Virus record (IMG/VR): IMGVR_UViG_3300021400_001206
Span: 1 to 11,781 of that record
Length of the DNA stretch: 11,781 nt
Strand: one strand, 5' to 3'
From: a virus
Shown here: in pieces, positions 1 through 11,781 of the stretch
Layout: each line of letters starts with the position of its first letter
Numbering within the stretch: position 1 is the stretch's first letter
Position numbers and translations under genes: made by a program
The notes under the pieces: model-generated
The model's input: the letters and a program-made list of their open reading frames with translations, nothing else
Databases searched by the model: none
What the model was told of the DNA's origin: nothing

Positions 1-26
1 TTAAATACTATGAAAGGAATAAAAAC

Positions 27-233
27 ATGATTAAAGTATTTACTTTAAATAAAAATGGAAAAATAGAATTAACAGAAAAAGAATTAAAATAGTTATTAGA
101 TAATGTATATTGGGAAGGATATAGAGATAATAATAAATCATCTTGGACTTACACAACTCCATTAACTTACCCTTATTATTCAAATATAACAGCAGACTCA
201 ATTACTTTAGGATCAGCTATAAAGGAGGAATGA
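27..233 (+). CDS. Hypothetical protein of 68 aa (if it starts at ATG 27), with one internal TAG at 90-92.
   Basis: ATG at 27 is preceded by aaagga at 13-18, and the ORF ends at TGA 231-233. The frame is also open upstream to the window edge, so this may be the 3' end of a longer gene. The TAG at 90-92 is read through as protein-like sequence (ELTEKELKxLLDNVYWEGYRD). No family recognised. Confidence 0.5.
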
Positions 234-239
234 AATAAA

Positions 240-935
240 ATGAAATTTGAAAATACCGAAGTTTGGGGTTTTGAACATGCTTTAAGAGGTATGAGAAATC
301 CCAAAAATAGTTGGGATAAAAGTGATAGCAATTGGGAATAGCACCCTTATAATCCTATTGGACCTAATGATATGAAATTAGCTAGAGCTCTTATTTAGGG
401 TGGTCCAGAGCATCGTAAATTCTTACGTCAAATTTTTGTATCTGTTGATATTACCGCACCTTTATATTGGTGGAAATAGTTTGACACTTATAAAATTGGC
501 ACAGTCGCTAATAGTACGTCAACTATGCATAAATTAACAAGCAAACCAATCACTCTTGATTGTTTTGAAACAGATGATTTTAATTCAGATTTAGTTTATT
601 ATACTGAACCAAATCCATATTCTGATGTTTATATTGAAATGGAAAATACAACAGGTATGTTATCTGAAATCATTATTGAGCAACTTGAATTTCTTCGTCA
701 AAAATATCTTGAAACAAAAGATAAGAAATATTGGAAATAGCTTGTGCGGTGGCTTCCTTAGGGGTGGCTTCAGACTAGAACTTGGACAGCAAATTATGAA
801 GTCATTCGAACTATTGTTCATCAACGATAGATGCATAAATTAAATTAGTGGAGCGGTTTAGACGATCCATCTAAACCTAATTTTATAAAATGGGCAAAAA
901 CATTACCTTATGCTGATGAATTTATTTTTAATTGA
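240..935 (+). CDS. ThyX-fold (flavin-dependent thymidylate synthase-like) protein of 231 aa with 7 internal TAG codons and a degenerate RHR motif.
   Basis: RBS aaggagg at 222-228, ATG at 240, stop TGA at 933-935. In-frame TAGs lie at 339, 396, 477, 738, 759, 828 and 846, all followed by continuous protein-like sequence. From memory of Thermotoga ThyX, the segments GGPEHRKFLRQIFVSVDITAPLYWWKxFDTYKIGTVANSTS and LVRWLPxGWLQTRTWTANYEVIRTIVHQRxMHKLNxW align with the [41 protein letters not shown] and [36 protein letters not shown] blocks. The catalytic RHR is replaced by TYK. The track ORFs 525..740 and 625..843 are fragments or overlaps of this gene. Confidence 0.55.
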
Positions 936-960
936 AAAATAAAAAATAAAATGTTATAAT
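932..960 (+). promoter_or_regulatory. Sigma70-type promoter: -35 TTGAAA (932-937), 17 bp spacer, extended -10 TGtTATAAT (952-960).
   Basis: Read directly from the sequence. It shares the TGTTATAATATAA motif with four other sites. It would drive the small ORF 1002..1163 and the gene at 1176..1562. Confidence 0.55.
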
Positions 961-1001
961 ATAATTATAAAATGAAAATTATGTTATAGAGGAGATTAAA
1001 A

Positions 1002-1163
1002 ATGAAGCTCGAAGGAAATAGAAAAGAAAAGTTTATACAAATGCTTGAAAAAGAAATCTTTAATGACGAGAGTGGTTTTATAGAGAATTATGAAGAAGAT
1101 TGGTATGATTTAGTAATTTTCTTTGAAGATTTAAAAAATGGTCAAATTGTAATTGCATATTAA
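1002..1163 (+). CDS. Small hypothetical protein (53 aa). It is a paralog of the N-terminal domain of the next gene.
   Basis: RBS gaggag at 989-994, ATG at 1002, TAA at 1161-1163. KEKFIQMLEKEIFNDESGFIENYEEDWYDLVIFFEDLKNG aligns with KERFIEFVNELMEMADVNEWDDEERKDWKDAFDFFEELKNN in the downstream gene. No TAG. Confidence 0.55.
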   Translation: MKLEGNRKEKFIQMLEKEIFNDESGFIENYEEDWYDLVIFFEDLKNGQIVIAY

Positions 1164-1175
1164 GAGGAATAAGAA

Positions 1176-1562
1176 ATGGCTAAGACTAAAAAAGAAAGAT
1201 TTATTGAATTTGTTAATGAACTTATGGAAATGGCAGATGTAAATGAATGGGATGACGAAGAAAGAAAAGATTGGAAAGATGCTTTTGATTTCTTTGAAGA
1301 ACTTAAAAACAATAAAGTAAAAACCGCAAAAGAAATGACTGAAAACGGTGCTAAACTTCTTTCTTGGATGCAAGAGAATAAAGAAAAGATGTCAAATGTT
1401 TTTACGTCTAAAGAAGCCGCAGAAGGACTCTTTACAAGCGGTCGCTCCATTGCAGGAACCATGAGAAAGCTAGTAAATGATGGTTATGTAAAGAAAACTG
1501 GTAAAGACCCTGTCCAGTATTCATTAACTGAAGCTGGAGAAAATTATCAGTTTGACAATTAA
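1176..1562 (+). CDS. Small protein (128 aa) with a C-terminal winged-helix-like DNA-binding domain; a possible early transcriptional regulator.
   Basis: RBS aagagg, ATG at 1176, TAA stop. The C-terminus FTSKEAAEGLFTSGRSIAGTMRKLVNDGYVKKTGKDPVQYSLTEAG has the helix-turn-helix plus wing pattern typical of MarR/PadR-like wHTH domains. The N-terminal domain is paralogous to ORF 1002..1163. Confidence 0.7.
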   Translation: MAKTKKERFIEFVNELMEMADVNEWDDEERKDWKDAFDFFEELKNNKVKTAKEMTENGAKLLSWMQENKEKMSNVFTSKEAAEGLFTSGRSIAGTMRKLVNDGYVKKTGKDPVQYSLTEAGENYQFDN

Positions 1563-1580
1563 AAAAATTTTTATTATAAT
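1552..1580 (+). promoter_or_regulatory. Consensus sigma70 promoter: TTGACA (1552-1557), 17 bp spacer, TATAAT (1575-1580).
   Basis: Perfect -35 and -10 hexamers at optimal spacing, starting within the last codons of gene 1176..1562 and lying upstream of the RBS aaggag of gene 1620. Confidence 0.65.
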
Positions 1581-1619
1581 ATAAAAGTAAAGTTGATTTA
1601 ATTTAAGGAGATAAAATTA

Positions 1620-2621
1620 ATGAAAAAGAACGCAAGATTTATTAACACAGAAAGAATTGAAGGATATGTTTATAGTACAGGTAGTAATTTTAATCAGCTT
1701 TCTGAAAGAACAACAGGAGAGAATTCTAAGCATCCTGGAACAAAATATATTGCGGGAGACCTTGATATTGCTGTAGATGAATCTGGTCTAAATGTAGTGA
1801 CTATTCATTATACATATGTAACACCAACATATGGCAGTGGTCAGGTAAATAATACTTATACAGCTCTTAAAAGAATTATTGATAATCCAGATAAAATTTG
1901 GATTAATGGCGGTAAGGAAAATGCCTTTAAGGTCCAGTGTACTGGAGTTTCTATCGCAATCAATGATTTCATTGGAGCAGATGGAAAATTTGTTGCCGCA
2001 ATTAGAAATGAAGGTGGATTTTGTTCTATCGTAAATGAATTTGGTCCAGAATCAAATAGAAATACTTTCTCTGCTGATATGCTTATTACAAAAGTTACTC
2101 ATATTGATGCAGATCCAGATAAGAATATTGAAAATGATTTCACAACAGTTAGTGGAGCAATCTTTGGATATGGAAAAACAATTCCTGTTCTTCTTCCTGT
2201 TTCATTTACAGTTCGAAGCGAAAAGGGTATGGAATACTTTGAAAATCTTGATGCTACACCTTCAGACCCCGTTTTTACAAAAGTTTGGGGACATGTTAAT
2301 TGTATGACTGTTAAAGTAAAGAAAACTGAAGAGTCAGCTTTTGGTGGTGATTATGTTCAGGAGTCTGAGCGTAAGAGTCGTGAGTACCTTATCACAGGAA
2401 CAGCAAAAGTACCATATGACTTTGGTGATGAAGAAGTTCTTACTGCTAATGATGTAAGCACAATGAATCAGAATCGTCAGATTATGCTTGCAGAGGTTGA
2501 AAGCAGACATAAGGAACGCCAGGCAGAAAAGGCTGCAAATGGAGTAAGCTTTGAAGCTACTACAAAAGCTCCTGCCGCAACAAAAACAGCAGGTGTGCCT
2601 GAAGGTGGATTTGTATTTTAA
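1620..2621 (+). CDS. Hypothetical protein (333 aa). It sits immediately upstream of the Sak4-like ATPase. A possible ssDNA-binding or annealing partner, by position only.
   Basis: Long uninterrupted ORF with RBS aaggag at 1605-1610 and a TAA stop. No TAG. GC content is noticeably higher than in neighbouring genes. The C-terminal tail is low-complexity (ATTKAPAATKTAGVPEGGFVF). No family recognised from sequence. Confidence 0.8.
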   Translation: MKKNARFINTERIEGYVYSTGSNFNQLSERTTGENSKHPGTKYIAGDLDIAVDESGLNVVTIHYTYVTPTYGSGQVNNTYTALKRIIDNPDKIWINGGKENAFKVQCTGVSIAINDFIGADGKFVAAIRNEGGFCSIVNEFGPESNRNTFSADMLITKVTHIDADPDKNIENDFTTVSGAIFGYGKTIPVLLPVSFTVRSEKGMEYFENLDATPSDPVFTKVWGHVNCMTVKVKKTEESAFGGDYVQESERKSREYLITGTAKVPYDFGDEEVLTANDVSTMNQNRQIMLAEVESRHKERQAEKAANGVSFEATTKAPAATKTAGVPEGGFVF

Positions 2622-2637
2622 TGAGAGGTAATAAATA

Positions 2638-3678
2638 ATGGCAGATATTAATATTTTTAACATCTAGCCGCATCAGGTTAGCCGTAATCTAAGAGGATAT
2701 TCAATCTTCTTTTACGGCTAGCCAAAAAGTGGCAAAACTACAACAGCATCTAAGTTTGAAAAGAATCTTCTTTTAGCTTTTGAAAAAGGTTATAACGCAA
2801 TTCCAGGAGTTATGGCACAGCCTATTAATAACTGGGCAGAATTTAGAAAAGTTCTTCGTCAGTTAAAAGACCCAAAAGCTAAAGATATGTTCTATACTAT
2901 CACTATTGATACTTGTGATATTGCATATGATTATTGTACAAAGTATATTTGTGATAACGCCTTGAGACCTGATGGCGGTTATGGTGTAGACAGTATTAGT
3001 GATATTCCTTTTGGAAAAGGATACGGTCTTGTATCAAAAGAATTTGATGAATGTCTTAGATCTATTGTTATGATGGACTACGGTCTAATTCTTATCTCAC
3101 ACGCAACTGATAAAGTTTTTAAAGATGAAGCTGGAAATGAATATAATAAAATCGTTCCAACTCTAGACAAACGAGCCAATAATATTGTTGCACGAATGGC
3201 AGACATTATTGGATACTCAAGAATTGTTACTGATAAAGAAGGTAATAACTTAACAAAACTTTTTATGCGTGGTACACCGAGATATGAAGCTGGTTCTAGA
3301 TTTAAATATACACCAAATTATATTGATTTTTCTTATGATAATCTTGTTTCCGCCATAAGTGATGCTATTGATAAACAAGCACAAGAAGATGGAAAAGAGT
3401 TTTTTACAGATAAGAAAAACAATCTTTATGAAGATACAACTAAAGACCTTAATTTTGATGAACTTATGAAAAATTGTAATGATTTGATTAAGGGAATGAT
3501 TGATAATAATTCTGAAGAAGTGTTTAAAGAGTTTTATCAACCTCGTATTGTTCAAATTACAGATCGTTATTTGGGCAGAGGTCAAAAGATGAGTCAGTGT
3601 TCAAGAGAACAGGTTGAAGCTTTGTCTTTAATTTATGATGATCTTCTCTTACTTTCCAAAGAGCCTGCTTCAGAATGA
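2638..3678 (+). CDS. Sak4-like / AAA_24-family RecA-fold ATPase (phage recombination-associated ATPase), 346 aa, with 2 internal TAG codons.
   Basis: RBS gagagg at 2623-2628, ATG at 2638, TGA at 3676-3678. The N-terminus reads MADINIFNIxPHQVSRNLRGYSIFFYGxPKSGKTTTASKF. The Walker A motif (GxPKSGKT) is intact only if the TAGs at 2665 and 2719 are translated. Downstream motifs ITIDTCD (Walker B-like) and LISHATD resemble AAA_24/Sak4 proteins. The track ORF 2812..3678 is the TAG-truncated fragment and lacks the P-loop. Confidence 0.8.
2676..2723 (+). other. 12-bp stem / 24-nt loop hairpin inside the 5' end of the ATPase CDS. It spans the Walker A coding region and holds the second TAG codon in its 3' arm.
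   Basis: ggttagccgtaa (2676-2687) pairs with ttacggctagcc (2712-2723) with one G-U pair. The first TAG (2665) lies 9 nt upstream of the stem. The pentamer TAGCC occurs three times in 60 nt. Confidence 0.5.
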
Positions 3679-3692
3679 TTATATATTAAAGG

Positions 3693-3731
3693 CTTGTCAA
3701 AGTCCCGTTCTTTTGACAAGTCTTTTTTTTT
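3693..3731 (+). terminator. Rho-independent terminator after the ATPase gene.
   Basis: Stem cttgtcaaag (3693-3702) pairs with cttttgacaag (3710-3720), loop tcccgtt, followed by tcttttttttt (3721-3731). Confidence 0.8.
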
Positions 3732-3741
3732 ATGTTATAAT
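3713..3741 (+). promoter_or_regulatory. Consensus sigma70 promoter: TTGACA (3713-3718, inside the terminator's 3' arm), 17 bp spacer, extended -10 TGtTATAAT (3733-3741).
   Basis: Read directly from the sequence. It drives the zinc-ribbon gene, DnaB and the downstream operon. Confidence 0.7.
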
Positions 3742-3771
3742 ATAATAAGAAATTTTTTAAGGAGATTTTTT

Positions 3772-4287
3772 ATGGCTCATAAAGTAAAATGTTTATATTG
3801 CGGTGAGCAATTTGATCGAGATATAGAACCAACAAAACAAGTCTCCGCACGCAGATACGCTCATTTAAAGTGTTGGGAAGAACATCTTGCAAATATGTCG
3901 CAAGAAGAAAAAGATATTGCAGCATTTTATGATTATACTCGGCAACTATTTGGAGAAGATTATAATTATGTATTAACTAAAAAGTTAGCTGAAAGATATG
4001 TAAAAGAAAATCAATATACATATAGTGGAATGTTAAAAACTCTTAAGTGGTATTATGAAAAAGAAGGCCATTCACTTGATAAAAGTAATGGAAGTATTGG
4101 TATTATTCCTTATATATATAAACAAGCATTAAATTATTATTATGCACTTTATCAAGCTCAATTAATAAATAAAGAGAAGGATATTTCAAATTTTATATTA
4201 CCAAAAGAAAGAACTATAGAAATAGAATCTCCACGAGTGTATGTACGTCCGCCGCATTTGTGGCTAGAAGAAGAGGAGGATGAATGA
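3772..4287 (+). CDS. Zinc-ribbon protein (171 aa), translationally coupled to DnaB. A possible helicase loader or replication-initiation accessory (positional inference).
   Basis: RBS aaggag at 3759-3764, ATG at 3772. The track ORF starts at 3694, but that start lies within the terminator. CLYCGEQF...HLKCWEEH is a C2-HC zinc-binding motif. Stop TGA overlaps the DnaB ATG (ATGA at 4284-4287). Confidence 0.7.
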   Translation: MAHKVKCLYCGEQFDRDIEPTKQVSARRYAHLKCWEEHLANMSQEEKDIAAFYDYTRQLFGEDYNYVLTKKLAERYVKENQYTYSGMLKTLKWYYEKEGHSLDKSNGSIGIIPYIYKQALNYYYALYQAQLINKEKDISNFILPKERTIEIESPRVYVRPPHLWLEEEEDE

Positions 4288-5828
4288 GTTCAAAATATGT
4301 AGATGTATCTGCGAATATGCAGGTAATAGGAGACGTTTTTATAAATCCATCTTTATTAGATTTAGAAGATAAATATAAATTCAATGAACAAGATTTTCCT
4401 CAAGAATTTCATAGAATTTTATTTGGTTCAATTTATAATCTCCATCAATTAGGAGTAAAACAAATTTCAATTGAGGATATAGAAAAATATTTAGAACAAC
4501 GTCCAAAGAAATATGCAATTTATAAAATGAACAAAGGTTCTGAATATTTAGAGAATATTAAACAAATGTGTCAATTAGCGGCATTTGATTATTATTATAA
4601 TCGAATGAAAAAGATGACTCTGTTAAGAATGTATAATAAAACCGTTGGAATGAATTTATCTTGGCTTTATGATCCAGATAATATTTTAGATGTAAAAAAG
4701 AAAGAAGCTCAAGAGACATGGTTTGATAATACCCCCATTAATGAGATTGCTAATCTTATTAATGACAAGATAGAAGAAATAAAATCTAAATATGTTGATA
4801 ACTCAGAAGATGAAATCATTCAAGCTGGTGACGGTGCGTTAGCTTTACTTGAAAGATTAAGAAAAAATCCTGAAGTTGGTTATCCTTTATATGGAAGATT
4901 AGTCAATACCATTCATCGCGGGGCTAGATTAAAAAAATTTTATTTGCGGTCGGCCGCTACTGGTGTCGGAAAAACGCGTTCCATGATTGCAGACGCTTGT
5001 TTTATTGCTTGTAATAAACTTTATAATCTTGAAACTAAACAATGGGAAGATAATGGAACTCGTGAACCAACTGTGTTTATTACAACAGAACAAGAAGAAG
5101 ATGAGATTCAAACTATGATGATGGCGTTTTTAGCTAATGTAAACGAGTCTCATATTCTTGAAAATACGTATGTTGGAGATGAATGGGAACGCGTAACCGA
5201 AGCTGCGGAGATTCTTGAAAAAAGTCCGTTATATATTAAAAAATTACCAGACTTTTCATTACAAGATATTGAAAATACAATTAAAAGCAATATCCGCAAT
5301 CATGGAGTAAGATATGTATTCATGGATTATATTCATTCAAGTATGAAAATTCTTAGTGAGATTAGTTCAAAAGCAGGGGTTAAAGGATTAAGAGAAGATA
5401 ATATTCTTTTTATGATAAGTGTAAGAATTAAAGATTTATGTAATCAATATGGTGTATTTGTAATGTCTGCAACGCAGTTAAATTCTGATTATGTAACAGC
5501 TCAACAGTATGATCAGAATCTTCTTCGTGGCGCTAAAGCTATTGCTGATAAAATAGATTGTGGCATGATTATGTTACAAACAAGTCAAGACGACAGAGAG
5601 TCTTTAAAAAATATTGTTAATTCAATGGGTATCGAAATGCCTGATATAAAAATGTCTGTTTATAAAAATAGACGCGCTAGATATAAAGATATATTACTTT
5701 GGTGTAAATCAGAACGAGGAACTTGTCGTATTAATCCATTATTTGTAACTAATTATAACTATGAATTAATAGATATAGAAGATTTAAAAATTACAGTAAC
5801 ACCTAAAATAGAAGCAAGCGCATTTTAA
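4284..5828 (+). CDS. dnaB: DnaB-family replicative DNA helicase (514 aa).
   Basis: Walker A LRSAATGVGKTRSM, Walker B VFMDYIHS, SATQLN motif, and a DnaB-like N-terminal domain (FHRILFGSIYNL). No internal TAG. TAA stop. Confidence 0.9.
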   Translation: MSSKYVDVSANMQVIGDVFINPSLLDLEDKYKFNEQDFPQEFHRILFGSIYNLHQLGVKQISIEDIEKYLEQRPKKYAIYKMNKGSEYLENIKQMCQLAAFDYYYNRMKKMTLLRMYNKTVGMNLSWLYDPDNILDVKKKEAQETWFDNTPINEIANLINDKIEEIKSKYVDNSEDEIIQAGDGALALLERLRKNPEVGYPLYGRLVNTIHRGARLKKFYLRSAATGVGKTRSMIADACFIACNKLYNLETKQWEDNGTREPTVFITTEQEEDEIQTMMMAFLANVNESHILENTYVGDEWERVTEAAEILEKSPLYIKKLPDFSLQDIENTIKSNIRNHGVRYVFMDYIHSSMKILSEISSKAGVKGLREDNILFMISVRIKDLCNQYGVFVMSATQLNSDYVTAQQYDQNLLRGAKAIADKIDCGMIMLQTSQDDRESLKNIVNSMGIEMPDIKMSVYKNRRARYKDILLWCKSERGTCRINPLFVTNYNYELIDIEDLKITVTPKIEASAF

Positions 5829-5839
5829 GGAGGATATAT

Positions 5840-6052
5840 ATGCAATATGGTAAGTGTTATAAATGTGCCCATAATGGAATTTGCAGAATTTTGATGGCAG
5901 AAGCCATATCTTCATTAGGATAGTTTGTGCGACTTTTTAATAAAGCACAAACCAGAAAAACGGATAGTAAATGTATTTTACAAATAGATTATACTTGTGA
6001 AAATTTTGTAGAAAAGAATAGTAATGAAGATATACTAAATATACAAGAATAA
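5840..6052 (+). CDS. Small Cys-rich (zinc-ribbon-like) protein, 70 aa, with one internal TAG.
   Basis: Strong RBS aaggagg at 5827-5833, ATG at 5840, TAA at 6050-6052. The TAG at 5921 is read through. The product is MQYGKCYKCAHNGIC...KCILQIDYTC with two Cys pairs. An 8-bp hairpin begins at the G of the TAG. Confidence 0.4.
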
Positions 6053-6068
6053 AAGCGAGTACATTTTA

Positions 6069-6239
6069 ATGAAAAAGAAATTTAGAAAACCAAGACCACA
6101 ACCTCCTAAATGGTTCTGGGCTGATAATGATAATTGTTGGAATTGTAAATACAATCATACAAAATGTAATAGTTGTAAAAGATTAAAAATATTTAGAAAA
6201 AAATATAGAGATAAAAAAACAATAAAGGAGAAAAGATGA
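6069..6239 (+). CDS. Small basic zinc-ribbon protein (56 aa), translationally coupled to the kinase-like gene.
   Basis: The product MKKKFRKPRPQPPKWFWADNDNCWNCKYNHTKCNSCKRLK has a CxxC-x7-CxxC motif. Stop TGA at 6237-6239 overlaps ATG 6236 (ATGA). No TAG. Confidence 0.5.
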   Translation: MKKKFRKPRPQPPKWFWADNDNCWNCKYNHTKCNSCKRLKIFRKKYRDKKTIKEKR

Positions 6240-6643
6240 TTATTTGTGGTTTTCCTGGGGTCGGAAAATCTACCTTAGCAAAATTTTCTAATTGGATAGA
6301 TTTAGAAAGCACCCCATTTGAAAAAGATTGGGTTCGTTATGCAAAAGTAGCAAAACATATGAGTGATAATGGATATAATGTTATGGTATCTACTCATCCC
6401 CAGTTGTTAGAACAATTTGAACAAATGGAAGTAAGATATACTGTTGTAGTACCTCCTTTTACTGATGTTTCTATTTATAAAGATAGATATATCAAAAGAG
6501 GAAACAATATTGATTTTACTTCCTTAATTGAAATAAATTGGGATAAATGGATTGGAGATATTATAACAAAATCTTCAGTTAATAAAACTGTTGTAATATT
6601 ACCAAAAAATGGTTGTTTACAAGCCTATATTGAAAAAATATGA
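6236..6643 (+). CDS. P-loop NTPase, small nucleotide/nucleoside kinase-like protein (135 aa).
   Basis: N-terminal Walker A MIICGFPGVGKSTLA. The small size and fold pattern are typical of AAA_17/18 or dNMP-kinase-like proteins. Substrate unknown. Confidence 0.75.
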   Translation: MIICGFPGVGKSTLAKFSNWIDLESTPFEKDWVRYAKVAKHMSDNGYNVMVSTHPQLLEQFEQMEVRYTVVVPPFTDVSIYKDRYIKRGNNIDFTSLIEINWDKWIGDIITKSSVNKTVVILPKNGCLQAYIEKI

Positions 6644-6737
6644 AAATATATAAAGAATTAAAATACTTATGGAGTTAGTTAGGTTTTGTACTATGGTGCG
6701 GGAATTGGAGGAAAGCTGAGGAAACTTGTCAAAAAAT

Positions 6738-6746
6738 TGATATAAT
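6738..6746 (+). promoter_or_regulatory. Possible extended -10 element TGaTATAAT upstream of the primase gene, with no good -35.
   Basis: tgatataat at 6738-6746. The nearest -35-like hexamer, ttgtca at 6726-6731, is only 9 bp away. Weak call. Confidence 0.25.
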
Positions 6747-6804
6747 CGCAAAACAACATCCAATTATAAAATTTTTTGCCATGATATTACATTAAGGAAT
6801 TGAT

Positions 6805-7902
6805 ATGAAATTTAAATATGATAAAGACATTTTAAAAGAAAACTTATCAATAGAAGAAGTATTTGATTTAGTTAGTGAGTTAGGCGGTGAACCAATTATG
6901 GGTAATGGATTATTTACCGCCCGCACTATCTGTCATGGCGGCGATAGTCACAAACTTTATTATTATGAAAATACTCATTTATTTCATTGTTATACAGGAT
7001 GCGGGGACGCATCATTTGATATATATGATTTAGTTTTAAGAGTAAATAAAACTGCTGGAATTGAAAGTTTTTCTCTTTCCAGAGCAATATCTTTTGTAGC
7101 TAGATATTTTGGATATACAGCTGAAATATTTGATTTTGAAGATAATCAAGATGTTAGTGAAGACTGGAAAATTATTAATAATTTTAAAAGAAATAGAGAA
7201 AAATCTCAACCACAAATTATAGAATTAAAAACTTATGATGATAAAATATTAAAATATTTACCTCATCCCCATATCTTACCGTGGGAGAAAGAAGATATAA
7301 CATTTGATATAATGGAATCAAGAGGTATATGTTATAATCCAATAAGCGAAGGAATTGTTATTCCACATTATGATATAGATAATAAATTAATTGGGATTCG
7401 AGAAAGAACTCTTATAAAAGAAAATGAAATATATGGCAAATATCGTCCAGCTATAATTGGTGGCAAGATGTATAACCACCCGCTCGGTTTTTCACTCTAT
7501 AACCTCAACAATAGCAAAAAAGCAATTTCTATATTTCAAAAAGTAATTGTTTTTGAAGGTGAAAAAAGTTGTCTTAAATATGCTTCTTATTTTGGTAAAG
7601 ATTCAGATATTAGTGTAGCATGTTGCGGTAGTAATTTAATTAATTATCAAGTTAAACTACTTTTATCTCTTGGAGTAAAAGAAATTATTATTGCACTTGA
7701 TAAACAGTTTCAAAAAATTGGTGATAACGAATGGCAAAAATGGGTTATTAAATTAAAAACTTTATATAATAAGTATGGTAATTATGTAAATATTAGTTAT
7801 ATGTTTGATAAAGATAATTTGCTTGGATATAAAGATTCGCCAATAGATTGTGGGAAGGATACGTTTTTAGAATTATTTAAAAGGAGAGTTACAATAGAAT
7901 GA
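6805..7902 (+). CDS. DNA primase with CHC2 zinc finger and TOPRIM domain (365 aa).
   Basis: CHGGDSHKLYYYENTHLFHCYTGCG matches the DnaG-type CHC2 zinc-binding signature. VIVFEGEKSCLKYA (TOPRIM glutamate) and IIALDKQ are also present. RBS taaggaa. Stop TGA overlaps the next ATG (ATGA at 7899). Confidence 0.85.
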   Translation: MKFKYDKDILKENLSIEEVFDLVSELGGEPIMGNGLFTARTICHGGDSHKLYYYENTHLFHCYTGCGDASFDIYDLVLRVNKTAGIESFSLSRAISFVARYFGYTAEIFDFEDNQDVSEDWKIINNFKRNREKSQPQIIELKTYDDKILKYLPHPHILPWEKEDITFDIMESRGICYNPISEGIVIPHYDIDNKLIGIRERTLIKENEIYGKYRPAIIGGKMYNHPLGFSLYNLNNSKKAISIFQKVIVFEGEKSCLKYASYFGKDSDISVACCGSNLINYQVKLLLSLGVKEIIIALDKQFQKIGDNEWQKWVIKLKTLYNKYGNYVNISYMFDKDNLLGYKDSPIDCGKDTFLELFKRRVTIE

Positions 7903-8699
7903 ATGCAAATCCGTGGAGACATAAAGAAGATAATAAAATAAAAGCACAAAAACAAATTAAATACATGGATGAGAACTTTGCTAATGAAACTGCGGAGGCC
8001 GTCGCTAATACAGTTATATATACTGGTCCTGTAGATATATGGGATTGGACTAAAAATGGTTTTAATCCAGTCCCCTATTCACAATTACTTGATATGGGTA
8101 CTGTTGATGCGATTTTTCATGTTCGAGAAGTCTTAGGAGAAGATAATAAAGAAGTTAAAGTTGCTGCGCTCAACTTTGCGTCATATAGAAATCCTGGTGG
8201 GAAATTTGTTGATGGTAGTAATGCTCAAGAAGAATGTCTATGTCATGAATCTAATCTTTATAATATTTTAAGAAACTTCACATCATATTATAGAGAAAAT
8301 AATTCTAAGCCAAATAAAAATCTTTATACTGATAGAGCCTTATATTCTCCAGATGTGATTTTTAACAAAGGAAATCATATAGTTAAAGCAGATGTAATTA
8401 CTTGTGCCTCTCCAAATTGGACTGCTGCACGTAAATGGAATGTTTCTCAAGTTGAAAATACTCTTGTATTAGCTCAACGTATTCAGTTTATTAAAGATAT
8501 TGCAGAACTTGAAGCAGTTGATATTCTTATTCTTGGGGCTTGGGGATGTGGAGTATTCGGACAAAATCCAAGAACTGTTGCAAAATTATTTGATTTTATT
8601 TTTAGAGAAAGTGAAATTAAAAATATTGTATATGCAGTTCCTGGAGGATTAAATTCTGATAATTTTAAAGCCTTTGACGAATGTATTAGAAAGAGTTGA
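7899..8699 (+). CDS. Bacterial-type poly(ADP-ribose) glycohydrolase-like macrodomain protein (DUF2263 / TIGR02452 family), 266 aa.
   Basis: ALNFASYRNPGGKFVDGSNAQEECLCHESNLY matches the microbial PARG signature (NFAS...PGG-x8-QEE). LILGAWGCGVFGQNP is the macrodomain diphosphate-binding loop. No TAG. TGA stop. Confidence 0.85.
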   Translation: MNANPWRHKEDNKIKAQKQIKYMDENFANETAEAVANTVIYTGPVDIWDWTKNGFNPVPYSQLLDMGTVDAIFHVREVLGEDNKEVKVAALNFASYRNPGGKFVDGSNAQEECLCHESNLYNILRNFTSYYRENNSKPNKNLYTDRALYSPDVIFNKGNHIVKADVITCASPNWTAARKWNVSQVENTLVLAQRIQFIKDIAELEAVDILILGAWGCGVFGQNPRTVAKLFDFIFRESEIKNIVYAVPGGLNSDNFKAFDECIRKS

Positions 8700-8721
8700 C
8701 TTGACAACTCTTTCTTTTTTT
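8691..8721 (+). terminator. Rho-independent terminator after the PARG-like gene.
   Basis: aagagttg (8691-8698) pairs with caactctt (8705-8712), loop acttga, followed by tctttttttt. Confidence 0.75.
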
Positions 8722-8729
8722 GTTATAAT
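8701..8729 (+). promoter_or_regulatory. Consensus sigma70 promoter: TTGACA (8701-8706, in the terminator loop/stem), 17 bp spacer, extended -10 TGtTATAAT (8721-8729).
   Basis: Read directly from the sequence. It drives the RecJ-like gene. Confidence 0.7.
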
Positions 8730-8768
8730 ATAAAGTAGAAATATTATAAAATTAAAGGAAGAAAATAT

Positions 8769-10571
8769 ATGAAATATGAATTAATAAATAAACCAAATGA
8801 AAACTTTTCAACAATACAACAAATATTATATAATAGAGGAATTGCGAAAGATGAAATTTTACATTATGTAAATCTATCTGATTAGGATATTAATTCCCCA
8901 TTGTCTTTAGGAGAAACAAATCTCAAAAATGGGTTAATGGCTATTATTAATACTGTAAAAGAAAATGCTGATGCTTTAGTAATTGTAGACTGTGATTGTG
9001 ATGGTTACACATCTGCAGCTCTTCTTATTAATTATTTATATAAAATATTTCCCACTTGGGTCACTAATCATTTAGACTGGTACATGCATGATAGTAAGCA
9101 ACATGGGTTAAGTGATTGTATTGATTTTGTATTAGCTCATAATCCAAGGCTTGTGATTTGTCCAGATTCAAGTAGTAATGATTATAGTTATCATAAGACA
9201 TTAGCAGATAAAAATATTCAAGTATTAGTTTTAGATCATCACTTAGCAGATCGTATTAGTGAAAATGCTATTATTATTAATAATCAATTATCAGATTATC
9301 CTAATAAAGAATTATCTGGTGTTGGAGTCGTATGGCAATTTTGTCGATATATAGATAGATTTTTTTCTAATCCAAAAAATTATAAAATATGTAAAATGGC
9401 AGATGAATTTTTAGATTTAGTTGCTCTTGGGAATTGCGGTGATATGATGTCATTACGGTCTTTTGAAACTCGTTATCTAATTACAAAAGGGTTTAAAAAA
9501 GAAAATATTAAAAACCCTTTTATTGATTATATGATTGATAAAAACTCATTTCCTTTATCAAAAGCAGATTATGTATCATCAAATCCTGATATGGGATGCA
9601 CATCTATGGGCGCTGCATTTTTTATTGTACCATTTGTTAATGCTATTACTAGAAGTGGAACGATAGAATAGAAAAACTTACTTTTTAATTCTATGTTAAA
9701 TCATAAAGCTTTTACAGAAGTTATTTCAAACAAGCGTGGGCATAAATTAGGTTAGAAAGAAAAATTAATTTTACAAGCAATTAGAACAGTTACGAATGTT
9801 AAAAATAGACAAACGAGAGCAGAAGATACAGGATTAGATATGTTAGAGAAAATGATTGAAACTAATCATATGCTTAATCATAAAATTCTTTTATTCTTAT
9901 TAGAGCCTAATAAAATTGATCCTGAAATTCGTGGTTTAATTGCAAATAAATTTATGGCAAAATATCAAAGACCTTGTTGTCTATTAACTAAAACTAATAG
10001 AAATGGCAAAGAAACTTATGAAGGCTCTATGCGTGGATATACAAAAACTGGAATTGACAGTTTTAAAGAAGTGCTTGAACAATGCCCAGGAGTTTTATAT
10101 GTAGAAGGACATGATAACGCGGCTGGGCTTGGTATAGAAGCAGATCATGTAAATGATTTTCTTTATAAGATTGATTAGCTTCTTGAAGATGTCTCTGTTG
10201 AACCTATTTATAGAATTGATTATAATTTTAATGAAAAAGAAAACAACAATCAGCGCATTTTAGATATTGCAGATATGAATGACTATTGGGGTCAAGATGT
10301 AGATAGAGCTTATGTAAATATTAATTTTAAAGTTACTGATTCTAATTTTAAAGTTATGAAAAGCAATACTTTAAAATTTAATTTACCTAACGGATTATCT
10401 ATTATTAAATTTAATGGAACTGAAGAAGAAATTACTAGATTTACAACAACAGGGTATCTAGAAGTGAACGCTATTTGTAAATGCAATAAAAATTAGTGGA
10501 ATGGTTGCGTCTATCCGCAACTTATTATGTAGGATTTTGAAATTGTGGATTCTGCTAAATACTACTTTTAA
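8769..10571 (+). CDS. recJ: RecJ-like DHH/DHHA1 phosphoesterase (ssDNA exonuclease family), about 600 aa, with 6 internal TAG codons.
   Basis: ATG at 8769. In-frame TAGs at 8883, 9669, 9753, 10176, 10494 and 10530. True stop TAA at 10569-10571. RecJ N-terminal pattern ILYNRGIAKDEILHYVNLSDxDINSPLSL. DHH motifs IVDCDCDGYTSAALL and VLVLDHHLAD. DHHA1 motif VEGHDNAAGLG lies in the segment after the second and third TAG. The track ORFs 8901..9671, 9840..10178 and 10275..10496 are all in the same frame and are fragments of this one gene. Confidence 0.75.
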
Positions 10572-10601
10572 TGGCTCGGCGCGCAAACACCCGTACCTAG
10601 G

Positions 10602-10657
10602 AAGCAAAAATGCATTTGGATTTTTTTATTTGCATTTTTGCTTTTTGATTTTTTTAT
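10602..10657 (+). terminator. Rho-independent terminator after the RecJ-like gene.
   Basis: 13-bp perfect stem: aagcaaaaatgca (10602-10614) pairs with tgcatttttgctt (10631-10643). 16-nt loop, followed by a T-rich tract to 10657. Confidence 0.75.
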
Positions 10658-10673
10658 AAAAATTTGTTATAAT
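10645..10673 (+). promoter_or_regulatory. Sigma70 promoter: TTGATT (10645-10650), 17 bp spacer, extended -10 TGtTATAAT (10665-10673).
   Basis: Read directly from the sequence. It drives the NADAR gene and the downstream helicase. Confidence 0.6.
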
Positions 10674-10703
10674 ATATATAAATAAAATGTTAGGAGAATA
10701 AAT

Positions 10704-11156
10704 ATGGATATTGGAAGTGGTTCAGGTTATCCTGCAGCCTCATTAAGTAATTTTGCACCGCATCCTTTTATTATAGATGATGTACCTTGTAATTCAATGG
10801 AAGGCTTTCTACAATCTTTAAAATTTAAAAATATTGACATGCAAAAATATGTATGTTCTTTAGTTGGAAAAAGCGCAAAGTATAAAGGAAAAGATAAAAA
10901 ATGGTGGAAAACACAAACTCTATATTGGCAAGGTAAAGAATATAAACGTGATAGTCAGGAATATCAAATTCTTTTAAATAGAGCTTACAATGCGTTATAT
11001 CAAAATGAAGGATTTAGAAAAGCTTTAGAAGCTAGCCGTCCGGCAATCTTATCACACTCAATAGGGAAGAATAATCCTTCAAAAACAGTTTTAACTCAAG
11101 CAGAATTTGTGGGTCGTTTAATGAAGCTAAGAATGGGAAAAAAATTAGATGAATAA
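10704..11156 (+). CDS. NADAR-family (YbiA-like, DUF1768) ADP-ribose/N-glycoside hydrolase, 150 aa.
   Basis: SLSNFAPHPFIIDDVPCNSMEGFLQSLKF matches the YbiA/NADAR signature (SNFA-P...E..Q..KF). RBS taggag. TAA stop. No TAG. Confidence 0.85.
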   Translation: MDIGSGSGYPAASLSNFAPHPFIIDDVPCNSMEGFLQSLKFKNIDMQKYVCSLVGKSAKYKGKDKKWWKTQTLYWQGKEYKRDSQEYQILLNRAYNALYQNEGFRKALEASRPAILSHSIGKNNPSKTVLTQAEFVGRLMKLRMGKKLDE

Positions 11157-11171
11157 TAGAGGTGCATAGAT

Positions 11172-11414
11172 ATGTCAGATGAAAGTTTAAAAATTAATAC
11201 AATAAATGAAAAAAAATTAAAAGGCTATCAATATGATTCTTTAATATATAGATATATTCGAGCTAGAGAGCAAATGGCAGAATATGAATATCTAAGAGAT
11301 AGACAGAGCAATGTCTCTAATCATACTGAATGGACTGTGTATCGGCAAAGAGCGAATAGAGATATAATGCGTTTTGTTCAAATTTTAGATGAAGTGATTG
11401 GAGAGCATGAATAA
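11172..11414 (+). CDS. Hypothetical protein (80 aa).
   Basis: RBS agaggtg, ATG at 11172, TAA at 11412-11414, which overlaps the next start by 1 nt. No family recognised. Confidence 0.6.
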   Translation: MSDESLKINTINEKKLKGYQYDSLIYRYIRAREQMAEYEYLRDRQSNVSNHTEWTVYRQRANRDIMRFVQILDEVIGEHE

Positions 11415-11781
11415 TGATATTAACTAAAAAACAAGAGGAAGGATTAAAAACTGCTGTAGCGCGACATCGGGACGGAGAAAAATATACGGTGATTGCTGGC
11501 TATGCTGGAACTGGTAAAAGTACACTTGTAAGATATATTATTGATGCTCTTAATGTTGAAGAAAGTAGAGTATGTTATTGCGCTTTTACTGGCAAAGCTG
11601 CAGAAGTATTAAAGAAAAAAGGAAATAAAAATGTAGCAACACTTCATCGGTTGCTATATGAACATATTCCGCGACCAGCGGGCGGTTTCTTTAGAAAGCC
11701 GAAACCACTTATTGATTATGATGTAGTTGTAGTTGATGAAGTTTCTATGGCTCCTAAGTCTTTGATGGAGTTACTGTTTAA
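11414..11781 (+). CDS. SF1 RecD/Dda-like DNA helicase (AAA_30-type), N-terminal fragment; it continues past the window end.
   Basis: Walker A IAGYAGTGKSTL and Walker B VVVVDEVSM. ATG at 11414 in frame 2. No stop before the window end. Confidence 0.8.
   Translation, partial: MILTKKQEEGLKTAVARHRDGEKYTVIAGYAGTGKSTLVRYIIDALNVEESRVCYCAFTGKAAEVLKKKGNKNVATLHRLLYEHIPRPAGGFFRKPKPLIDYDVVVVDEVSMAPKSLMELLF

Follow-up and report, generated by a model that had tools for sequence, protein, structure and literature searches.

The stretch of DNA analysed here (the window) comprises 11,781 nt, positions 1-11,781 of IMG/VR record IMGVR_UViG_3300021400_001206, and encodes two ADP-ribosylhydrolases of different families, a PARG-type macrodomain and a NADAR protein of the gp30.3 type. 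The window probably belongs to the replication module in the ~110-145 kb genome of a TAG-recoded phage, in which the two hydrolases are accessory genes that were acquired independently, sit in two variable slots of an SPbeta-like gene array and do not form a coupled system. This reading builds on intact active sites, family membership, fold, synteny and the independent presence and absence of the two genes, together with transcription signals observed as sequence patterns. A first-pass annotation of the same DNA had taken the two hydrolases, with a RecJ-like nuclease between them, for a dedicated counter-defence set. The two open reading frames (ORFs) on which it was based are present, and their assignment to the PARG and NADAR families was borne out by profile matches:

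7899..8699, + strand: bacterial-type PARG macrodomain (PF10021 / TIGR02452) of 266 amino acids, assigned by family and structure matches; accessory occupant of slot A (primase-RecJ junction)
10704..11156, + strand: gp30.3/AdfN-type NADAR ADP-ribosylglycohydrolase, assigned by PF08010, catalytic residues and model; accessory occupant of slot B (RecJ-helicase junction)

The product of 7899-8699 matched Pfam family PF10021 PARG_cat_microb (E 6e-25, 88.8 bits, cut-off 23.5) and, over profile positions 25-265 of 266, NCBIfam TIGR02452 (E 2.6e-54, 184.5 bits, cut-off 50). Solved PARGs of D. radiodurans (E 6e-23) and T. curvata (E 1.5e-18) were also matched. An AlphaFold model built with 39 homologues (predicted local distance difference test, pLDDT, 88) displays a macrodomain fold with a PARG-type N-terminal helical extension. 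With this model Foldseek returned T. curvata PARG (TM 0.83, E 1e-18) and D. radiodurans PARG (TM 0.72); the best 13 PDB fold matches were PARGs, followed by MacroD-like and viral macrodomains. Neither DarG nor TARG1 was found among the top 50 Foldseek matches, and no PADLOC model matched the protein at E <= 1, the content of the PADLOC library in DarG models not having been checked. Thus DarG and TARG1 did not emerge as the closest relatives from the fold and PADLOC comparison. The PARG signature GGG-X6-8-QEE is read here as NPGGKFVDGSNAQEE, with Lys in place of the third Gly (GGK), and G100, G101, Q110, E111 and E112 are invariant in an alignment of 39 sequences; the protein was aligned separately with D. 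radiodurans PARG. The diphosphate-binding loop GA(W/F)GCGVF is read as LGAWGCGVFGQNP, the loop stretch also as GAWGCGVFGQNP, and G213-A214-x-G216-x-G218-V219-F220 is invariant in the family alignment. The QEE site, with E111 and E112, is therefore intact. Sequence and model together place the macrodomain in the PARG class with a Glu-Glu active site, not in the DarG/TARG1 type.

This class assignment bears on the predicted chemistry. DarG, TARG1 and the phage protein AdfM belong to a TARG1/ALC1-like class with an Asn/Lys active site (PMC13309987, PMC9411070), the catalytic pair in T. aquaticus DarG being N22 and K80, and removal of ADP-ribose (ADPr) from thymidine has been reported for DarG/TARG1-type enzymes only (PMC12879935, PMC9411070). 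In published assays bacterial PARGs act on ribose-ribose and phosphate linkages, cleaving ADPr from the 2'-OH of RNA and from phosphate ends (PMC11833690). A ribose cap limits them to terminal ADPr units (PMC8120803). From the PARG class and these published substrates it is predicted that the window enzyme most likely cleaves O-glycosidic ribose-ribose or phosphate-linked ADPr and does not remove thymine-linked ADPr. The idea that the two proteins are erasers of thymidine and guanosine marks, respectively, consequently survives for its NADAR half (AdfN type, with E33, K40 and H118) but not for the macrodomain, which is of the PARG type and not of the DarG/TARG1 type.

The 10704-11156 product matched PF08010 'Bacteriophage protein GP30.3' over profile positions 1-137 of 138 (E 7e-55, 185.1 bits, cut-off 36) and shares 38% identity with T4 gp30.3 and up to 65% with other phage homologues. 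T4 gene 30.3, which founded this family, now bears the name adfN (anti-DarT factor NADAR) and is necessary and sufficient for escape of T-even phages from DarTG1; purified T4 AdfN strips the ADPr made by DarT1 from DNA, its E36 and K43 are essential in vivo (mutants E36A and K43A have lost activity), and the RB69 allele, in which the C-terminal helix is missing, does not function (PMC11257639, PMC11825919). The window protein retains all of these determinants. Its E33 and K40 correspond to T4 E36 and K43 and are invariant in 7 diverse and 26 closer sequences. H118 (LSHSIG) aligns with the clade-specific His of the last strand in T4 (LKHSIA) and is invariant in both alignments; in the gp30.3 clade this His replaces the Glu/Asp of other NADARs (PMC11125620, PMC11257639). 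The C-terminal helix is intact, as the alignment runs beyond the T4 C-terminus and the model has a helix at 132-143. A sequence-only PDB search with gp30.3 found no NADAR, so that a fold search was needed; fold matches of the model (pLDDT 93) confirmed the YbiA/NADAR alpha+beta fold. In PHROGs the protein falls in phrog_652 (function unknown), and no PADLOC model matched it. The gp30.3 clade hydrolyses guanosine-linked ADPr (G-ADPr) and not thymidine-linked ADPr (T-ADPr) (PMC11125620). On this sequence evidence the window NADAR is filed as AdfN-type, with an activity predicted from its T4 homologue.

The genes around the two hydrolases follow the replication array of phage SPbeta:

6805..7902, + strand: primase in the SPbeta YorJ position, with a weak Toprim match; present in all relatives; its stop overlaps the PARG start
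8769..10571, + strand: RecJ-like DHH/DHHA1 exonuclease, YorK homologue, 600 codons with six in-frame TAGs; core replication gene
11172..11414, + strand: small conserved ORF of 80 amino acids, co-oriented with gp30.3; its end overlaps the helicase start codon
11414..11781, + strand: N-terminal part of a RecD/PIF1-like helicase (AAA_30, UvrD_C_2; 393 amino acids in the full contig); present in all relatives; closes slot B

Standard-code ORF calling splits the RecJ gene into fragments. Read through, its product shares 30-33% identity over 99-100% of its length with yorK of SPbeta-group phages, every one of its phage homologues comes from Bacillota phages, and it is found, with DHH and DHHA1 domains, in every relative. 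In SPbeta the order is yorF-G-H-I-J-K-L, with yorJ and yorK overlapping, yorK and yorL 13 nt apart and no genes inserted. The window has the same order, and its extra genes lie at exactly the yorJ-yorK and yorK-yorL junctions. This synteny identifies RecJ as the core YorK gene of the yorF-yorL array, outside any hydrolase set, and the first-pass annotation, which had counted the nuclease as a member of such a set, is contradicted on this point. The 80-residue ORF matched no Pfam family and no PHROG; it occurs in relatives with and without gp30.3 (L033 lacks gp30.3). In one PARG-bearing relative, L030, the RecJ gene is split by ~1.03 kb (8187-9220) exactly in the DHHA1 motif (YVEG / HDNAAGLG), and the insert lacks long ORFs and matched nothing in Rfam. 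A similar interruption, of ~1.1 kb, lies in the AAA_24 gene of L030, between about 698 and 1793. These interruptions may be introns or other insertions.

Comparison of related loci showed that both junctions are variable. Slot A (between primase and RecJ) is empty in L009, L011 and L012, holds a 127-residue membrane ORF in L007, whose core proteins are 91-99% identical to those of the window, and a GIY-YIG protein in L008/L024; PARG is thus absent from the slot in L007, L008, L009, L011 and L012. PARG occupies it in L030 and L034, accompanied by the membrane ORF in L031 and L033 and by a GIY-YIG protein in L121. Slot B (between RecJ and helicase) carries gp30.3 in L007, L008/L024, L009, L011 and L012, but in L030, L033, L034/L035, L078 and L121 only small ORFs or, in L078, a GIY-YIG protein. 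Relatives with PARG only (L030, L033, L034/L035, L078, L121) therefore stand beside relatives with gp30.3 only (L007, L008/L024, L009, L011, L012). Both genes were found together only in the window's own strain (L001, L003, L004), and every other relative seen has one of them. Since relatives carry PARG or NADAR alone, the two genes appear as separate add-ons and not as a paired system.

Co-occurrence was also assessed with profile hidden Markov models of both families over six-frame translations in which TAG was read as sense, a scan of short flanks in which distant NADARs could be missed. PARG was found within ~6 kb in 0/23 IMG/VR gp30.3 loci and a gp30.3-type NADAR within ~6 kb in 0/77 IMG/VR PARG loci; the two contig lists do not overlap. 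Among 88 PARG loci from bacterial genomes and metagenome assemblies one has a NADAR-like ORF near PARG, in a metagenome-assembled genome (MAG) of Limisphaerales. There (L175, ~3440-5690) a YbiA-like NADAR ORF lies ~0.7 kb upstream of a PARG-type gene, and the C-terminal part of its reading frame looks degenerate. The pair is not recurrent and is a lineage-specific coincidence of two accessory genes; the dedicated set that had been proposed is not found in the relatives. GIY-YIG homing-endonuclease-like genes, also TAG-rich with as many as 10 in frame, occur at the same junctions (L008/L024 2834-3586, L078 2719-3402, L121 5333-6004, L002 1191-2132). Both junctions resemble hot spots at which accessory genes are exchanged.

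Sequence patterns of transcription signals also set the two hydrolase genes apart:

8688..8715, + strand: terminator-like hairpin with U-run, directly 3' of the PARG stop (-13.8 kcal/mol, z -4.1)
8701..8729, + strand: perfect sigma-70 promoter 5' of RecJ, TTGACA-17-TATAAT (12/12 positions), the -10 being preceded by TG
10598..10656, + strand: long AT-rich terminator-like hairpin (10598-10646) with U-run, 3' of the RecJ stop (-22.3 kcal/mol, z -7.2)
10645..10673, + strand: extended -10 promoter-like site 5' of gp30.3, TTGATT-17-TATAAT preceded by TG at the -10

The site at 8701-8729 is the sole perfect sigma-70 site in 6500-11781, and none of 200 shuffles (0/200) folded as well as the RecJ hairpin. 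Primase stop and PARG start overlap in ATGA (7899-7902), so PARG has no promoter of its own. A ribosome-binding site, AGGAG, precedes the gp30.3 ATG by 7 nt; no terminator was found after gp30.3, which appears from the sequence to head an operon with the 80-residue ORF and the helicase. The apparent layout is [primase-PARG], [RecJ] and [gp30.3, 80-residue ORF, helicase onward], PARG, RecJ and gp30.3 being parted by two strong U-run hairpins and two promoter-like sites, which are sequence patterns and not transcripts. Judged by these patterns PARG and NADAR do not share an operon or a transcript, and the TAG content of RecJ differs from that of both. That each gene has its own boundaries, as had been proposed, holds for the hairpins and promoters around PARG, RecJ and gp30.3 but not for a separate PARG promoter; that RecJ has its own promoter and terminator was borne out at the level of sequence patterns, the true extent of the gene being 8769-10571. 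The RecJ promoter overlaps the descending arm and U-run of the post-PARG hairpin (8688-8729), so that termination of primase-PARG and initiation of RecJ would share the same 40 bases.

Recoding of TAG adds a further distinction. Several genes of the window are broken by TAG, and by no other stop, and are restored when TAG is read as sense. Besides the RecJ-like gene these are:

240-935, + strand: gene of 232 codons with seven in-frame TAGs
2638-3678, + strand: AAA_24 ATPase gene with two in-frame TAGs
5840-6052, + strand: small ORF with one in-frame TAG

Both hydrolase genes lack TAG, as had been noted in the first-pass annotation. In the window alone this is compatible with chance (P ~0.16), but counts pooled over the orthologues of each gene rule chance out: RecJ orthologues contain 52 TAG in 5798 codons, while there is none in 1595 codons of PARG orthologues (0/1595) and none in 750 codons of gp30.3 orthologues (0/750). 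At the RecJ rate ~14 and ~7 TAGs, respectively, would be expected, and the TAG-free state of the hydrolases therefore reflects a real class difference. They share the TAG-free class with most replication genes (primase orthologues 0 TAG in 4030 codons, DnaB 1 in 4503, helicase 0 in 985). This gene-specific use of TAG was noted across the window and its relatives L007-L012, L030-L036, L078 and L121. By analogy with published ideas on recoded phages, TAG-free genes would be translatable before the suppressor tRNA acts, and early expression of the hydrolases would fit this pattern. RecJ is TAG-dense and has its own promoter and terminator inside the replication module, which suggests a separate expression class that depends on suppressor tRNA. 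A search for a suppressor tRNA found no tRNA in the window or in 18 related loci.

The amino acid inserted at TAG is ambiguous: Gln (as in code 15), Glu, or both. In-frame TAG aligns with GAA/GAG (Glu) about twice as often as with CAA/CAG (Gln). Several TAG columns have Glu in all relatives without the TAG, and TAG arose independently at the same Glu columns across lineages; among the sites concerned are RecJ codons 301, 329, 576 and 588 and codons 79 and 198 (of 231) of the 240-935 gene. Between the window and L007, the closest pair (RecJ 93% identical), each of the four TAGs that only L007 has is matched by GAA in the window. Counted per codon, exchange of TAG with Glu and with Gln is similar (42 TAG-E vs 2217 E-E; 26 TAG-Q vs 1158 Q-Q), and all relatives have Gln in at least one TAG column.

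We infer the substrates of both enzymes, and any counter-defence role in this phage, from characterised homologues. In the proposed mechanism the two array junctions would collect accessory genes, each holding one single-domain ADP-ribosylhydrolase in this lineage. As they are TAG-free, like DnaB, primase and helicase, PARG and NADAR would be translatable with the standard code as soon as infection begins, while the RecJ cassette between them, with its six TAGs, would require suppression. The slot B NADAR would hydrolyse the N-glycosidic bond between ADPr and guanine N2 in phage DNA, as its T4 homologue does, thereby undoing a DarT1-like ADP-ribosyltransferase defence and allowing replication to proceed. 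By this analogy we consider it likely that guanine-linked ADPr placed on phage DNA by DarT1-like enzymes is the mark removed. The slot A PARG, judged by bacterial PARGs, would cleave 2'-OH ADP-ribosylated RNA, ADPr-capped 5'-phosphate ends or poly(ADP-ribose)-like linkages, and would most likely guard against a different host ADP-ribosyltransferase or an ADPR-derived product. A counter-defence role of PARG is considered possible but somewhat less likely than not. Still more tentative is the suggestion that phage PARG represents a new class of anti-defence protein against a linkage beyond those handled by AdfN (guanine N-glycosidic) and AdfM (thymidine), stacked with NADAR against several host ADP-ribosyltransferases. 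Candidate targets would be 2'-OH ADP-ribosylated RNA made by RhsP2-like toxins, ADPr-capped 5'-phosphate ends and the 1''-2' bond of glycocyclic ADP-ribose (gcADPR). At most the hydrolases would act side by side as layered counter-defence, with RecJ outside. T-even phages stack AdfA and AdfN as layered defences.

A dedicated two-eraser system, in which PARG and NADAR strip T- and G-linked ADPr from replicating single-stranded DNA with RecJ included, is considered improbable. Both genes are intact, lie within 2 kb in the replication module and are TAG-free, and so translatable early, and the NADAR half agrees with the published AdfN function (PMC11257639). However, the macrodomain is PARG-type and without a PADLOC match at E <= 1, whereas T-ADPr hydrolysis is reported for DarG/TARG1-type enzymes only (PMC12879935); furthermore, the genes vary independently in relatives with no co-occurrence in 100 IMG/VR loci, hairpins and promoter-like sites would divide them over three separate transcription units, and RecJ is core YorK. 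It is also rather unlikely that one or both enzymes degrade soluble ADPR-derived signals or toxins, PARG for instance opening the 1''-2' bond of gcADPR as an anti-Thoeris enzyme. PARG chemistry would suit two riboses joined 1''-2' (a linkage described in PMC11833690), the step from there to gcADPR being ours, and there is a phage precedent for enzymatic degradation of Thoeris signals by RyR-domain proteins (PMC13232231). The literature search, though, found no link between PARG and gcADPR, and the main bacterial Thoeris signal, 3' cyclic ADP-ribose (3'cADPR), has a 1''-3' bond, which is not the poly(ADP-ribose) linkage. The gp30.3 clade is demonstrably active on DNA (PMC11125620, PMC11257639), and the ribose cap that confines bacterial PARGs to terminal ADPr (PMC8120803) might keep out a cyclic substrate.

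PARG might instead serve housekeeping or end repair by clearing ADPr caps from 5'-phosphate DNA or RNA ends for RecJ, ligase or primer processing, or the hydrolases might reverse an ADP-ribosyltransferase of the phage itself; T4 encodes the ADP-ribosyltransferases Alt, ModA and ModB. The gene is translationally coupled to primase and lies directly upstream of a 5'-3' single-stranded DNA exonuclease homologue, an NAD-dependent ligase is encoded a few kb upstream on the source contig (L002), and D. radiodurans PARG is located in a ligase-PARG-PNKP repair operon (PMC11833690). Yet most relatives keep primase and RecJ without PARG, so the replication machinery can do without it; PARG is parted by a strong hairpin and a promoter from RecJ, which also differs in TAG content, and no ADP-ribosyltransferase was seen in the ~30 kb available. 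We give this explanation, too, little probability. Two independent accessory hydrolases thus remain the preferred reading.

Several points nevertheless weigh against that reading. The related loci were retrieved through PARG or gp30.3 and read for ~6 kb on each side, so the relatives sampled all carry one of the two genes, genomes with neither are left out, and a second PARG or NADAR copy may lie elsewhere in the relatives' genomes beyond these flanks. Likewise, ~30 kb of the genome of ~110 kb was read, and a phage-encoded ADP-ribosyltransferase regulated by these enzymes may lie beyond it. The presence of DarT1-like or other ADP-ribosyltransferases in the host is assumed. Finally, T4 AdfN acts best on hydroxymethylated T-even DNA and rescued other phages only partly (PMC11257639), which makes activity on the DNA of the window phage an assumption as well.

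As to its origin, the phage comes from rumen metagenomes. The window DNA was found again on a 110-kb contig (ENA ERZ1756080 NODE_862) and others, in ENA metagenome assemblies and one NCBI metagenome assembly, with the sample names SHIW14 and AUXO, which may denote sheep rumen. The guanine plus cytosine content of the window is ~29% and the + strand carries all long ORFs. Named by Pfam families, the gene order on the contig is YorF, AAA_24, YorH, DnaB, small ORFs, primase, PARG, RecJ, gp30.3, 80-residue ORF, RecD-like helicase, PolIII alpha, guanylate kinase and NrdD. With the whole window as megablast query, no deposited phage matched at the DNA level, and Rfam searches of the window and L030 stayed empty at gathering thresholds, with nothing beyond noise at E <= 1. 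The phage probably infects a member of the Bacillota (Clostridia). This is supported by the 240-935 gene, homologues of which are found in phages of Clostridium, Enterocloster, Clostridioides and Fusobacterium. The nearest bacterial homologues of PARG are from gut and rumen Bacillota, which is all that the PARG alignment says on the host, and bacterial genomes scanned with the primase gave no match. The 240-935 product (231 amino acids, seven in-frame TAGs) falls in phrog_6721 (function unknown) and has no Pfam match; an assignment as ThyX was dropped on these grounds.

PARG is rare among phages. Of 50,697 deposited phage records, 20 carry the family: those of the Lak megaphages and of Bacillus phage G, with two records of uncultured huge phages and one fecal contig making up the rest. 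The deposited carriers are mostly huge phages (MK250015-MK250029, Lak megaphages; JN638751, Bacillus phage G gp114), and the Prevotella Lak megaphages are likewise TAG-recoded. No PHROGs family matched the window PARG. Its neighbourhood elsewhere was read in IMG/VR loci L037-L106 and in L115-L120, metagenome-assembly or MAG contigs of up to 839 kb that carry P0058 or P0098; the latter are long bacterial contigs in which the PARG regions look like mobile elements. A conserved partner was sought in 70 other phage loci without success: the commonest neighbour family occurred in 22/68, orphan DNA methyltransferases being most frequent. PARG homologues adjoin orphan DNA methyltransferases (N6_N4, Dam-type, C5) and methylase-helicase fusions, a neighbourhood that resembles an anti-restriction island.

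Part of this picture is known already. Macro and NADAR domains were described to co-occur, to be fused and to share neighbourhoods in phages and DNA viruses (Iyer, Burroughs, Anantharaman, Aravind 2022; PMC9503650), counter-defence by AdfN was reported in 2024-25, and a DarG-type macrodomain, AdfM, acts as anti-DarT factor (2026; PMC13309987). The supposition that no such paired arrangement had been described is thus outdated, and no new paired system is revealed here. What is new is an AdfN-type gene in a TAG-recoded rumen phage with an SPbeta-like module that probably infects Clostridia, the experimentally validated members of the family being from T4-like phages of Proteobacteria, and a bacterial-type PARG borne by a phage as a rare and mobile accessory gene. 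If PARG does serve counter-defence, a host defence by ADP-ribosylation that works through ribose- or phosphate-linked ADPr would be indicated.

The window phage can be set against five known systems. It shares with the SPbeta module YorF, AAA_24 (YorG), YorH, DnaB (YorI), primase (YorJ), RecJ (YorK) and PolIII alpha (YorL), but adds the insertions at the J/K and K/L junctions, a RecD-like helicase and TAG recoding concentrated in the YorK homologue. The pattern described by Iyer et al. 2022 (PMC9503650) likewise involves one phage genome with both Macro-fold and NADAR ADPr enzymes; here, however, they are separate genes in apparently separate transcription units ~2 kb apart, and conserved PARG-gp30.3 linkage was not seen. 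Similar to T4 gp30.3 (AdfN), the window NADAR is a single-domain PF08010 protein of ~150 amino acids with the NADAR fold, catalytic Glu and Lys, clade His and C-terminal helix. T4 AdfN adjoins the DNA ligase gene, whereas the window NADAR lies between RecJ and helicase, and T4 AdfN seems tuned to hydroxymethylated DNA. The authors of the AdfN studies described the gp30.3 clade as concentrated in T4-like phages (Straboviridae, phages of Proteobacteria), in contrast to the TAG-recoded phage with its SPbeta-like module and probable Clostridia host.

With the bacterial-type PARGs (T. curvata PARG, D. radiodurans DRB0099, S. coelicolor SCO0909) the window PARG shares the TIGR02452 match, the fold, QEE and the GAxGCGVF loop. 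It differs in being phage-encoded, in its 24-27% identity to the solved enzymes and in GGK for GGG, and it is located in a phage replication module, while the bacterial enzymes are found in a bacterial repair operon or with a PARP partner. AdfM of a chimallivirus, a DarG2-like protein that counters DarTG2 (PMC13309987), is, like the window PARG, a phage-encoded single macrodomain-fold ADP-ribosylhydrolase, and counter-defence is a plausible role for the window protein. Unlike the window protein, with its PARG-type fold and catalytic Glu-Glu, AdfM is of the DarG/TARG1 type and removes thymidine-ADPr with catalytic Asn and Lys.

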